Shown in pieces: positions 4,213 to 46,883 of a stretch of DNA of 64,000 nt (position 1 is its first letter; every line of letters begins with the position of its first letter). The stretch spans positions 36,887 to 100,886 of the forward strand of contig CANRIS010000005.1 in NCBI GenBank assembly GCA_947630725.1, given 5' to 3'. The translations under genes were made by a program, and so were the position numbers. The notes under the pieces are model-generated. The model worked only from the letters and a program-made list of their open reading frames with translations, searched no databases and was not told the DNA's origin. The DNA comes from an uncultured Clostridia bacterium (GTDB taxonomy: Bacteria; Bacillota; Clostridia; Lachnospirales; CAG-274).

Positions 4213-4250
4213 CGGAATCTTATATTTGTTGAATAATTCAGATTGACAAT

Positions 4251-4305
4251 AATGCTTTCGATTAGTCAGACAATGCAGTTTGATAAATCCGAAAGCATTT
4301 TTCTT
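4251..4305 (+). terminator. inter-cistronic hairpin (partial terminator/attenuator) between SBP and permease genes
   Basis: 10-bp stem AATGCTTTCG / CGAAAGCATT (4251-4260 and 4290-4299) followed by TTTCTTT. The loop is long (29 nt), so efficiency is uncertain. Confidence 0.35.
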
Positions 4306-4326
4306 TAGAAACAAGGGGGAAAATAA

Positions 4327-19568: not shown

Positions 19569-19806
19569 GGGACACCATCATCAAAATGCAGTCGCATTTT
19601 GATGAGTACCAAATGTGCGTGCCGGGCAAGCCGGCGACTTCATTTGGAGGTAGGAATATAAATTTAAATTTTTCAAAAACTACGTTTTTTCAAATTTAAA
19701 TTTATTCCTCGGACGGGCAGAGCTCGTCCTGCGGATTAAAGTCTGCGACGCTTCTTAGAAATTTAATTTTCGGACACCACCTGCGGATTAAAGTCTGTGA
19801 TGATGC
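19569..19806 (+). repeat. family-2 modular hairpin-mosaic intergenic repeat, copy 1
   Basis: Contains the modules CATCAAAATGC-n-GCATTTTGATG and CCAAATG..GCCGGGCAAGCCGGC..CATTTGG. Also contains an AT-rich long hairpin, GGACGGGCAGAGCTCGTCC, and two CTGCGGATTAAAGTCTG units. The same modules occur at 27692-27894 and 45006-45305. Confidence 0.85.
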
Positions 19807-19970
19807 ATACAATATATTTGTCGAATAACTTTTTTGATTATCAGTCAATTTACTTTTTTAACAGTATAAACAGGACAGCAGGACAATACATATGTACTGT
19901 CCTGCCGTTGGTTTTTATATTATATATTTTATATTTTGTGTGTTGTTATGTCTTGGCAGACGGAATTTTG

Positions 19971-27565: not shown

Positions 27566-27691
27566 TATTTTGATTATATAATTAATGATTTGTCGGTAAA
27601 TAGGACATACTTATTTTATTAAAGAAACAGACTGTTAAAAAAGTAAATCTGTTTATAATAATAAAAATATTCGACAAATATATTATATACA

Positions 27692-27894
27692 GCGTCGCAG
27701 ACTTTAATCCGCAGGTAGTGTCCGAAAGAAATCGGATTGCCCGAAGGGCAACTTTTCCGCAAGGAAAAGCACTGAGCGTAAGCTTTGCCCGCCCTTTATC
27801 CAAATGAAGTCGCCGGCTTGCCCGGCACGCACATTTGGCCTCATCAAAATGCGGCTGCATTTTGATGACAGCGTGTAGATTTTTCGACACGCTG
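27692..27894 (-). repeat. family-2 modular hairpin-mosaic repeat, copy 2 (inverted)
   Basis: Its reverse complement carries CAGCGTGTCG..CGACACGCTG, the CATCAAAATGC hairpin, the CCAAATG..CATTTGG module and one CTGCGGATTAAAGTCTGCGACGC unit. The central module is replaced by three different small hairpins. Confidence 0.85.
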
Positions 27895-44101: not shown

Positions 44102-44935
44102 ATGAAAAGATTTTTAAGCGCTGCGCTTATACTTACAATGGCATTTTCGTTCTGTGGCTGCGGAAATGGAGAAGTTGAGATAGTCAATGAGTCCGATGGC
44201 GAGACAGAGCAGACAGAGCAGGCCGAAAACGAAGAGTCCGAGGAGATCACAAGCTTTATTGTCGGTCTTGACGATACGTTTGCGCCTATGGGCTTCAGAG
44301 ACGAAAACAACGAGCTTGCGGGCTTTGATATTGAGCTTGCAAAGGCTGCTGCCGAGGCTATGGACTGCACCGTTGAATTTCAGCCTATCGACTGGGACAC
44401 AAAGGAAACCGAGCTTGAATCGGGCAAGATCGACCTTATCTGGAACGGCTTTTCTTATACGGACGAAAGAAACGAGTCTATGACTCTTTCGGCTCCTTAT
44501 CTTGACAACAGAATGATAATCATTGTTCCCACAGACTCCGATATAACGGCAAAAGCTGACCTTGTTGGCAAGACCGTAGGACTTCAGGACGGTTCTTCCG
44601 CTGCTGACGCCGTAGAGTCTGACGAGATCTCGGCTGAGATCGGAGAGATCGTTCCCTACGATACAAACGATCAGGCTTTCACAGATCTTAAGACAGGCAG
44701 AATTGACGCTGTTGTAGCTGACGAGGTGCTTGCAAAGTATTATATCGAAACATCGGGATCGGATTTTACTATTCTTGACGAGGACTTCGGCTCAGAGGTT
44801 TATGTTATCGCAGCAAAGAAGGGCAACACGGCTCTTATGGATAAGCTTGACGCAGCTCTCACAGAGCTTGGCGAGAACGGTACCGCTGCCGAAATATCCG
44901 AAGAGTGGTTTGGCGAAAACATCTATATCCACTGA
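44102..44935 (+). CDS. polar amino-acid ABC transporter substrate-binding lipoprotein (operon 2)
   Basis: Lipobox FSFCGCG. Acidic linker. Family-3 SBP motifs (GLDDTFAPMGF, IDLIWNGFSYTDER). Confidence 0.85.
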   Translation: MKRFLSAALILTMAFSFCGCGNGEVEIVNESDGETEQTEQAENEESEEITSFIVGLDDTFAPMGFRDENNELAGFDIELAKAAAEAMDCTVEFQPIDWDTKETELESGKIDLIWNGFSYTDERNESMTLSAPYLDNRMIIIVPTDSDITAKADLVGKTVGLQDGSSAADAVESDEISAEIGEIVPYDTNDQAFTDLKTGRIDAVVADEVLAKYYIETSGSDFTILDEDFGSEVYVIAAKKGNTALMDKLDAALTELGENGTAAEISEEWFGENIYIH

Positions 44936-45005
44936 TTTATTGAGGATACCGATACTACCCGTTAATCCGGATTGCAAAAAAGGACTTGGGAAACTCTCAA
45001 GTACG

Positions 45006-45305
45006 CAGCGTGTCGGGAAAAGCCGACACGCTGTCATCAAAATGCGGTCGCATTTTGATGAGGCCAAATGTGCGTGCCGGGCAAGCCGGCGACTTCATTT
45101 GGATAAAGGAATATAAATTTCAATTTGTTCCAAAAACTGCGTTTTTTCGCAAATTGAAATTTATTCCTCGGACGGGCAAAGCTCGTCCTGCGGATTAAAG
45201 TCTGCGACGCATCTCATCCTGCGGATTAAGGTCTGCGATGCATCTCATCCTGCGGATTAAAGTCTGCGATGCATCTTGTTTTGCGGATTAAAATCTGCGG
45301 CGAAT
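45006..45305 (+). repeat. family-2 modular hairpin-mosaic repeat, copy 3 (inside ABC operon 2)
   Basis: All modules are present in the same order as in copy 1. It ends in about 4 tandem 31-bp units. Confidence 0.85.
45187..45305 (+). repeat. 31-bp tandem repeat (about 3.8 units)
   Basis: CCTGCGGATTAAAGTCTGCGACGCATCTCAT at 45187, 45218 and 45249, with a degenerate unit at 45280. Confidence 0.9.
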
Positions 45306-45470
45306 ATTATATGATCCATATCCAAATTTCAAAAAAAGGACTTGGGAAATTCTCAGGTCCTTTCTTTAACTGAACAGATAGGTTTCATTATTCTCGGGCG
45401 GAGCAGGGATACCGTTGAACGATAATAACGACAAAAGAAAAACAGAAACAGAAGAACAGGAGGGCGTTTT

Positions 45471-46124
45471 ATGGCGAATCTGAAAGAATGGATACCGCTT
45501 ATGCTGCAGGGCTGCGGCCTTACCGTAAAGCTTTTTTTTATTGTTATACTGCTGTCCTTGCCTTTGGGACTTGCCGCAACCTTTTTGTATACGGGCAAAA
45601 ATGTTGTAATAAGAAAGATAATGGGGTTTTATATACTTATTATGAGAGGAACGCCCCTTCTTTTGCAGGTGTTTTTTATATATTTCGGACTTCCCTTTGT
45701 GCCGAAGATAGGACAATATCTGACTATAAACGACAGATTTATAGCTGCCTGCACAGCATATGTGCTGAATTATGCGGCTTATTTTGCTGAAATTTTCAGA
45801 GGAGGGCTTTTGTCTGTTGACAAGGGACAATATGAGGCGGCAAAGGTACTCGGAATGTCGGAGTCACAGACTACGTTTAAGATAGTTCTGCCTCAGATGA
45901 TAAGAATATCGCTGCCTGCGGTTTCAAACGAGGCGATCATACTTATAAAGGATACTGCCCTCGTTACGGCAATAGGACTTGCGGATCTTCTTAAGGTGAC
46001 AAACAATATAGTAAACAGAACAACCAACATAACTGCCTTTATTGTGGCGGCTTGTTTTTATCTTGTGATGAGTTATCTGCTTACCGTTTTCTTCAGAAAC
46101 TTAGAGAAGAAATTCGCTTTTTGA
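45471..46124 (+). CDS. polar amino-acid ABC transporter permease (operon 2)
   Basis: Multi-TM protein with loop motif GQYEAAKVLGMSESQTTFKIVLPQM. Confidence 0.85.
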   Translation: MANLKEWIPLMLQGCGLTVKLFFIVILLSLPLGLAATFLYTGKNVVIRKIMGFYILIMRGTPLLLQVFFIYFGLPFVPKIGQYLTINDRFIAACTAYVLNYAAYFAEIFRGGLLSVDKGQYEAAKVLGMSESQTTFKIVLPQMIRISLPAVSNEAIILIKDTALVTAIGLADLLKVTNNIVNRTTNITAFIVAACFYLVMSYLLTVFFRNLEKKFAF

Positions 46125-46139
46125 GAGGGGTGAGGCATT

Positions 46140-46883
46140 ATGAGTATGATAGAGGTCAGAAATATAAAAAAGAGCTTTGGAGATCTTGAAGTATTGAAGG
46201 ACATAAGCTTCAGTGTGGAAAAGGGTGACGTTGTGGCTATACTCGGCCCCTCGGGTTCGGGCAAGAGTACAATGCTGCGCAGCCTTATAGAGCTTGAAAC
46301 GGTAGACGCAGGAGAAATAATAATAGAAGGCGACACACTGTGCAGCGACGGCATTTATGTCCCCAAAAAACAGAGGAAAAAAATACTCGACAAAATGGGA
46401 ATGGTTTTTCAGCACTTCAACCTTTTCCCTCATATGAATATAAAGGACAATCTTTTGTGCGCTTGTCTGTGCGCAAAGCAGGCAGGAAAAAAAGAGCTTG
46501 AAAAACTTGCCTCCGAGCTATTGGCAAAAGTGGATTTATCTGATAAAATAAATGCAATGCCTTCGCAGCTTTCGGGAGGACAGAAGCAGAGAGTCGCCAT
46601 AGCCAGAGCGCTTATGAGACAGCCCGATATAATGCTTTTTGACGAGCCTACATCGGCTCTCGACCCGGAGCTTACAAAGGAGGTATTGAATGTTATAAAG
46701 CAGCTTTCGGAGGAAAAAATGACTATGCTCATAGTCACTCACGAGATAGGTTTTGCGGTAGAGGCCGCAAACAAAATAATTTTTCTTGACGAGGGACACA
46801 TCGCCGCTATGGGAAGCCCCGAGGAGGCGCTTTATAACAACGACAACGAAAGAATAAAGGCTTTTCTTGAAAAGGTGGTATAA
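46140..46883 (+). CDS. polar amino-acid ABC transporter ATP-binding protein (operon 2)
   Basis: Walker [10 protein letters not shown], signature [15 protein letters not shown], Walker [13 protein letters not shown]-loop VTHEI. Confidence 0.9.
   Translation: MSMIEVRNIKKSFGDLEVLKDISFSVEKGDVVAILGPSGSGKSTMLRSLIELETVDAGEIIIEGDTLCSDGIYVPKKQRKKILDKMGMVFQHFNLFPHMNIKDNLLCACLCAKQAGKKELEKLASELLAKVDLSDKINAMPSQLSGGQKQRVAIARALMRQPDIMLFDEPTSALDPELTKEVLNVIKQLSEEKMTMLIVTHEIGFAVEAANKIIFLDEGHIAAMGSPEEALYNNDNERIKAFLEKVV

Follow-up and report, generated by a model that had tools for sequence, protein, structure and literature searches.

A hairpin-mosaic, MITE-like element bracketed by a duplicated inter-cistronic hairpin in an ABC-transporter operon of an uncultured Clostridia bacterium

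In an operon for a polar amino-acid type ABC transporter of an uncultured Clostridia bacterium, the SBP gene and the permease gene are separated by 535 nt, and the corresponding gap in a paralogous operon (4213-4326) is 114 nt. What occupies the longer gap, and how did it come to be there? The window analyzed here is the whole stretch of 64,000 nucleotides that contains both operons, corresponding to positions 36887-100886 of contig C5 of the host genome (2.9 Mb, 83 contigs, 42.8% GC). An initial annotation of the window, made without database searches, had placed the SBP stop at 44935 and the permease start at 45471 and had given both gap lengths, all of which were correct according to the ORF list and the sequence. 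It had also proposed that a member of a repeat family, named family 2, was inserted into an original inter-cistronic hairpin with duplication of a 28-bp target. The 535-nt gap consists of perfect hairpins in a chain together with a 31-nt tandem array, and as RNA it is predicted to fold with -191 kcal/mol (z = -8.8 against shuffled sequence). The coordinates of the features are collected in Table 1.

Table 1. Features in and around the SBP-permease gap (positions of the window)
Feature	Position	Strand	Description and basis
SBP gene (SBP_bac_3)	44102..44935	+	Polar amino-acid type ABC transporter; upstream of the insertion; ORF list; Pfam PF00497, 132 bits
Left target-site duplication copy	44965-45002	+	38 nt, ATCCGGATTGCAAAAAAGGACTTGGGAAACTCTCAAGT; empty-site comparison (L056, L089), repeat search, fold
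Family-2 modular MITE-like element	45003..45319	+	317 nt; hairpin chain; no ORF (only spurious short ones)
Module A	45006..45033	+	Left TIR CAGCGTGTCG... folded back as a perfect hairpin; 12/15 positions match IS end CAGACTGTCAAAAAA
Modules B, C, D	45034-45061, 45062-45102, 45110-45167	+	Three hairpins common to most family members; inverted repeats, module map
E-F core	45168..45210	+	TCGGACGGGCAAAGCTCGTCC TGCGGATTAAAGTCTGCGACGC; two hairpins conserved across genera
F hairpin tandem array	45182..45299	+	Period 31 nt, 3.8 copies (TRF, repeat search); 3 copies in L091
AT-rich tail, truncated	45303..45319	+	AATATTATATGATCCAT; the family's canonical 3' end ...TTTTTTGACAGTCTG is missing
Right target-site duplication copy	45320-45358	+	39 nt, ATCCAAATTTCAAAAAAAGGACTTGGGAAATTCTCAGGT; 38/39 identical to the L056 empty site
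Intact 13-bp inter-cistronic hairpin	45335-45363	+	AAAGGACTTGGGA AAT TCTCAGGTCCTTT; ancestral, single copy in G001 and G003-G009; fold
Permease gene (BPD_transp_1)	45471..46124	+	ABC transporter; downstream of the insertion; ORF list and profile match
ABC ATPase gene	46140-46883		ORF list and profile match

Empty and occupied sites of the insertion

A repeat search of the window returned a direct repeat at 44976-45002 and 45332-45358 with 93% identity, a pattern that occurred twice in the window against an expectation of 0 from 100 shuffles. Local alignment of the left and right repeats scored 45, compared to a maximum of 24 in 200 shuffles, and no further copy was present anywhere in the 2.9-Mb genome even with 5 mismatches allowed. 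Empty sites were searched for in 40 relatives. The orthologous operon was found in all nine other species of the genus, and both genes were readable in eight of them (G001, G003-G009). In all eight, the gap measured 60-90 nt and carried one hairpin and no element, the single hairpin of G005, for example, being AAAGGGCTTGGGAAGTTCTCAAGTCCTTTCTTT. Metagenome contigs of the same species, obtained by exact-protein look-ups, supplied two more empty sites. One of them, L056 (96.5-97.6% identity), has a 173-nt gap containing ...TTAATCCAAATTGCAAAAAAAGGACTTGGGAAATTCTCAGGTCCTTTCTTTAACTG..., which matches the right repeat at 38 of 39 positions, and the other, L089 (~99% identical to the window), corresponds exactly to the left repeat of the window joined to its right flank. 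An empty site in orthologous operons, which had been suggested as a check, was thus present in 8 of 8 same-genus species and in both conspecific contigs, and these ten empty sites support the proposed insertion with target duplication into the original inter-cistronic hairpin.

The empty-site comparison also corrected the extent of the duplication. The repeat is direct, as had been described, but it is 38/39 nt and not 28 bp long, reaching 10 nt further left, and the element between its borders accordingly spans 45003-45319 rather than 45006-45305. Two other readings of the repeat were rejected. The 28-mer does not belong to the element itself, since it is unique in the genome, is single at the empty sites, and is replaced by different flanking duplications at other copies of the family. 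An inverted duplication of a palindrome was rejected on alignment of the 19-nt core by hand, with 5 mismatches for the reverse complement vs 2 for the direct alignment.

On the upstream side the joint falls 14 nt short of the 5' foot of the 13-bp hairpin, and on the downstream side it falls 6 nt inside the 3' arm, so that the left copy has only the inner 8 bp of the hairpin, and the right copy together with its flank makes up the whole of it. That the full hairpin occurs only in the right copy (45335-45363) was therefore recognized correctly in the initial annotation, whereas the loss of the 3' arm from the left copy is partial: according to the fold, this copy has retained the 5' arm, the loop and the inner 8 bp, and only the outer 3' arm is gone. 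The sequence following the right hairpin (CTTTCTTTAAC), which had been called a T-rich tail, is moderately T-rich, but it did not pass a simple terminator scan. One joint inside the stem and one 14 nt upstream of it form a less tidy arrangement than the foot-to-foot pattern at other copies of the family.

The left and right copies differ at 5-6 of 38-39 positions, though the strains differ from each other by only 1-3.5%. Compared with the ancestral-type sequence, the left copy has 5 differing positions, and 2 of these changes (AATCCAAATT to AATCCGGATT, and CAGGT to CAAGT) produced perfect palindromes, which may be the signature of hairpin-templated correction.

The element is present with the same junctions in L051, L053 and L055 (98.5% identity) and in L090-L092. 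Since occupied and empty strains belong to one species, the element is polymorphic within that species. In the 654-nt permease gene, L089 differs from L090 at 4 positions and from the window at 7, and the window differs from L091 at 10 and from L056 at 11. L089, an empty strain, therefore groups among the occupied strains by this measure, although these differences are few and the picture might be obscured by recombination between strains. The simplest reading is that there was one insertion in an ancestor of these strains, probably followed by precise loss in the L089 line by recombination from repeat to repeat; long flanking repeats permit such precise loss of an element.

This copy has only the left TIR. 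The right TIR is absent, and the element ends with ...GATCCAT instead of ...GACAGTCTG. Its tail sequence is unique in the genome, and the same truncated tail was observed in every strain whose contig reaches the right junction (L090-L092), among which no full-length tail was found. Because the right TIR is missing, normal two-ended transposition would need either a later deletion of the tail, possibly along with the start of a longer right repeat, or the use of a cryptic end. The truncated end is common to all sampled strains and is thus old, and this copy is now probably immobile.

Head-to-tail arrays of internal hairpins were also noted, comprising the F unit at 45182-45299 and further arrays at C27:2-180 and C1:105548-105688, in addition to a G unit of ~61 nt that is repeated up to 3x. 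Such arrays could be footprints of an excised hairpin-duplicating element, or the result of plain slippage.

Family 2 and the IS1182-family insertion sequences

A blastn-short search with the modules located family 2 at about 57 dispersed loci in the 2.9-Mb genome. Elsewhere in the genome its members are 0.2-0.45 kb in size and consist of hairpin modules throughout, with no transposase gene. Their architecture can be written as A-B-C-D-(H)-E-F-(G-F)n-tail, in which H and the G-F units are optional; module A of the family is CAGCGTGTCGAAAAATCGACACGCTG, and the AT-rich tail of ~65 nt ends in TTTTTTGACAGTCTG. The two ends of the family, 5' CAGCGTGTCGAAAAA... and 3' ...TTTTTTGACAGTCTG, form an imperfect inverted repeat (CAGCGTGTCGAAAAA / CAGACTGTCAAAAAA).

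Flanking duplications were sought by comparing 120 nt upstream with 200 nt downstream for 40 testable copies, together with shuffled controls. In 11 of the 40, direct repeats of 21-39 nt (78-100% identical) stood far above the controls, and three further degenerate or short-contig copies had flanking duplications of the same kind. The two other window copies, at 19578-19865 and 27628-27894, have none, in agreement with the initial annotation, which had suggested looking at the rest of the family. In each case the duplicated sequence is a terminator-like hairpin peculiar to that locus, directly adjoining (C)AGCGTGTCG at the left side and GACAGTCTG at the right, and the right copy is followed by a T-run in 10 of the 11 cases. 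Duplications were thus detected in only about a third of the testable copies; none was detectable at the remaining ones, which may represent a replacement or blunt outcome, or may simply be old. According to a crude ORF-based gene call, a gene 3' end adjoins 39 of the 42 copies having genes called on both sides, and 30 of 38 copies have the same orientation as the upstream gene. Together, the duplicated hairpins and the placement at gene 3' ends indicate that family 2 lands on terminator-like hairpins and often duplicates them. MITEs of the same architecture, with an A hairpin, a variable middle, the E-F core, an AT-rich tail and the GACAGTCTG end, were found in other genera (L057, L065, L071 and L072), with hairpin duplications of 25 nt in L071, 30 nt in L065 and 35 nt in L072.

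As a separate observation, two copies of family 2 (C6:55335-55599 and C30:8691-9044) abut, on their upstream flanks, GC-rich hairpin repeats (GGCGTGCTTTTGTCC...GGACAAAAGCACGCC and CTGCCGCC...GGCGGCAG), which are probably the 'family 1' elements of the window. Hairpin repeats seem to attract one another into clusters.

The ends of family 2 match those of an insertion sequence in the same genome. This IS, at C11:59603-61129, is 1527 bp long with the ends CAGACTGTCAAAAAA...TTTGACAGTCTG, and a second copy (C53:111-1585) is 98% identical to it. The 14-mer TTTTTGACAGTCTG marks the ends of the IS as well as those of family 2, and the copy in the operon matches with its left end only. The product of both IS copies was identified as an IS1182-family transposase by NF033551 (338 bits, cut-off 270) and also by Pfam DDE_Tnp_1_6. 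The initial statement that no transposase is nearby therefore holds for this contig, but not for the genome, in which an IS with matching ends is present on C11 and C53. Both copies share a frameshift (after ...CHDNCRQA) and an in-frame TAA (after ...RFNEEII), so that both assembled copies are probably dead; the shared defects mean either that a defective IS was copied or that recoding is involved. Fragments of the IS are present at five contig ends, where further copies of this IS1182-family element break the assembly.

Transposase homologues were found in 11 of 72 genomes of the bacterial family. One of them, in a genome of a sister genus (G015), is an intact 475-aa IS1182-family transposase (417 bits, cut-off 270) encoded by an IS with the ends CAGTCTGTCAA.../...TTGACAGACTG, which has a perfect 25-nt duplicated hairpin, ACCGCCGCATTATAAATGCGGCGGT, on both sides. 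This shows that an autonomous relative leaves the same footprint as the MITEs.

We consider it very likely that the element is a non-autonomous MITE using the transposase of an IS1182-family IS. The pairing of transposase and MITE is suggested by about 15 nt of end similarity and by the shared footprint, and an IS1182-type enzyme would have moved this copy in trans. In the proposed mechanism, a DDE-type transposase would recognize the TIRs of the element and aim at hairpin- or cruciform-forming DNA, here the conserved inter-cistronic hairpin of the operon; both ends of the element would be joined to the two target strands 38-39 nt apart; and gap repair would then copy this 38-39-nt stretch onto both sides of the element. 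The length of the duplication would be set by the size of the hairpin instead of a fixed stagger, with joining at the feet of the extruded cruciform.

Hairpin targeting is known for the IS1182 family, some members of which target palindromes (PMC4923244, PMC5678879). Insertions of IS1272 and TnSha1 are found in hairpins that share no sequence consensus and are mostly terminators, and part of the stem-loop is deleted (PMC4923244). In the proposal of Wan et al. 2017, the 3' ends of the element act on the feet of a cruciform that has been extruded, and hairpin replacement is the outcome when the 3' feet are attacked (PMC5678879). Family 2, together with its proposed IS partner, resembles the staphylococcal elements IS1272, TnSha1 and TnSha2 in several respects: an IS1182-family DDE transposase with ~16-bp TIRs (PMC4923244, PMC5678879), hairpin-forming inverted-repeat targets without a primary-sequence consensus, mostly terminators just downstream of genes, and the existence of non-autonomous derivatives mobilized by one IS. 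It differs in that no target duplication is made by IS1272 and TnSha1, which delete the stem-loop or replace it, whereas here all or most of it is duplicated, and in being a gene-less hairpin mosaic of 0.2-0.4 kb in an uncultured gut-type lineage of Clostridia. Duplication of a whole stem-loop was modelled as one outcome of joining at the cruciform feet (PMC5678879, Fig 13 pathway b), where it was drawn as theoretical only; here such duplications are seen as footprints, and our data fit this duplication branch of the model. IS1182-family elements of Clostridia, namely ISCbo5 and ISBma2 of C. botulinum group III and C. novyi-NT, are described as surrounded by a hairpin; ISCbo5 lies in hairpins at gene ends, and all insertion sites but one are gene-end hairpins, probably terminators (PMC3098183). 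Unlike family 2, these are full-length ISs and not MITEs, and that paper contains no analysis of duplication length and no intra-operon case.

Two side observations concern the IS itself. In C20:8280-8326, a 47-nt mini-element consists of the left-end hairpin of the IS between two terminal repeats (CAGACTGTCAAAAAGGCTCAGAAGTACTGGGCTTTCTTGACAGTCTG), which is the same build as module A. At two loci (C25:205-300 and C24:37040-37172), another repeat (CCACCTGCTATGCAGGTGGAGCCCAAAAGCTTAAGCTACAAGCAAAAAGCCTCCTG...), starting with a hairpin, flanks IS ends.

To our knowledge, the IS1182 catalogue of ISfinder / Siguier et al. 2015 describes no MITE partner with a conserved internal core, and the direct repeats of the family are reportedly 0-60 bp long there, a range that includes the 21-39 nt duplications of family 2.

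The conserved E-F core and alternative origins

In other species it is the E-F core, not the element as a whole, that is conserved. This ~46-nt core is present in 39 of 72 genomes, representing 11 of 15 genera; it was usually 85-97% identical and occurred in many copies, and neither the ends of the element nor the genes around it are as well conserved. Among 20 distinct variants of the core, compensatory changes affected 4 of the 8 pairs of the E stem, which was reached by 0 of 500 shuffles, and the F stem was invariant with a variable loop. Conserved G.U wobbles, two in F and one in E, mean that the E-F fold exists on one strand only. The core was also considered as a subterminal part of IS1182-type ISs and rejected in this role, as it lies inside none of 12 IS loci, the sole match being to a neighbouring MITE. 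Against Rfam, the window matched tRNA only at the gathering threshold, with no match to the element, and only chance-level matches appeared at E <= 1.

The conservation of the core, the covariation in the E stem, the two F wobbles and the 30/38 co-orientation could together point to the E-F double hairpin as a selected, strand-specific structured module, acting as a 3' UTR or inter-cistronic RNA or as single-stranded DNA and spread by the MITE to the ends of dozens of genes in at least 11 genera. We hold this reading only tentatively and judge it rather unlikely; under it, the core could be a stabilizer, a processing site or a protein-binding site.

The hairpin mosaic also calls to mind host repeats of the REP/BIME or BOX kind, disseminated through recombination or through a single-strand transposase of the Y1 (RAYT / IS200) type, with the flanking repeat arising from slippage or template switching at a hairpin. 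Like BOX of Streptococcus pneumoniae and BIME of enterobacteria, family 2 is built as a chain of hairpin modules whose internal units vary in number, is intergenic and would often be co-transcribed with neighbouring genes. The one-strand fold of the core with its conserved wobbles would suit a substrate of RNA or single-stranded DNA, four Y1_Tnp genes are present in the genome, and this copy is without a right TIR. However, none of the four has an F or E-F module in its vicinity, contigs C15, C41, C42 and C79 being free of family-2 loci. Y1 transposases make no target duplication, whereas 11 of 40 testable copies have one whose borders fall exactly at the terminal repeats, and hairpin-length duplications are likewise no feature of BOX and BIME, the ends of which do not match an IS1182-type IS. 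As the termini of family 2 do match such an IS, and an intact IS1182-family IS shows the same footprint, we regard this origin as quite improbable.

Retroposition, in which an RNA copy would be reverse-transcribed at a nick in the hairpin (target-primed), would produce variable duplications and 5'-truncated copies. Duplication lengths do vary (21-39 nt), several copies lack 5' modules (GT, GFT, GGF and EGF architectures), co-orientation with the upstream gene is strong, at 30 of 38 copies, and the fold is strand-specific. On the other hand, the TIRs of the element match a DDE-type IS, this copy is truncated at its 3' and not its 5' end, there is neither a poly-A-like nor a primer-binding tail, and the autonomous IS leaves the same footprint, all of which makes retroposition very improbable. 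Hardly more credible is a tandem duplication of the hairpin region that was already there when the element inserted by any means, leaving the repeat uninformative on mechanism, because even though the two copies differ more than expected if young, none of the examined genomes and contigs has two hairpins without the element, all ten empty sites are single-copy, and the same bracket surrounds more than ten other copies at unrelated hairpins.

Consequences for the operon and for annotation

By its ends and its footprint, then, the element appears to be a non-autonomous partner of the hairpin-targeting IS1182 family. As elements of this family have already been published as hunters of hairpins and terminators, it belongs to a known kind, and its behaviour is a known one that brings in no new principle. 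What is particular to this copy is its site within an operon, the occurrence of empty, occupied and probably reverted alleles, the missing right TIR and the conserved E-F core.

Inter-cistronic hairpins in ABC operons commonly let the binding-protein message outlast or outnumber the permease message, and the hairpin found genus-wide between the SBP and permease genes would be a structure of this usual kind. The insertion leaves an intact hairpin on the permease side and a weakened one on the SBP side, and brings in ~320 nt of stem-loops that are very stable and lie in sense orientation. Simple scans detected no convincing promoter inside the insert and only weak terminator-like sites. The element would be co-transcribed with the operon and could alter the ratio of SBP to permease, as the initial annotation had also suggested, and altered transcript processing or read-through across the insert is plausible. 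The two cistrons need different dosage, and the very stable structure of ~320 nt that separates them is found in some strains and not in others, which makes the locus a natural experiment.

For annotation, elements of this kind account for a large proportion of the long intergenic regions with many hairpins in this family of gut Clostridia, and duplicated terminators in these genomes are to be read as footprints of transposons rather than as regulatory inventions. The published cases of IS1272 involve hairpin deletion only. The natural series available here, comprising one site with empty, occupied and probably reverted alleles, more than 10 other sites in the same genome, and an intact IS with the same footprint, supports the view that IS1182-type enzymes recognize the shape of the DNA and that duplication size is determined by the hairpin.

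Two further observations may be added. In L080 (G015:C1, 2915-3020), the intact IS lies at a hairpin abutting the end of an inverted MITE with an F hairpin, which is an example of nesting. In the paralogous ABC operon of the window, the gap that separates the SBP gene from the permease gene (4213-4326) likewise holds a hairpin, AATGCTTTCG...CGAAAGCATT followed by TTTTC, and carries no repeat element.
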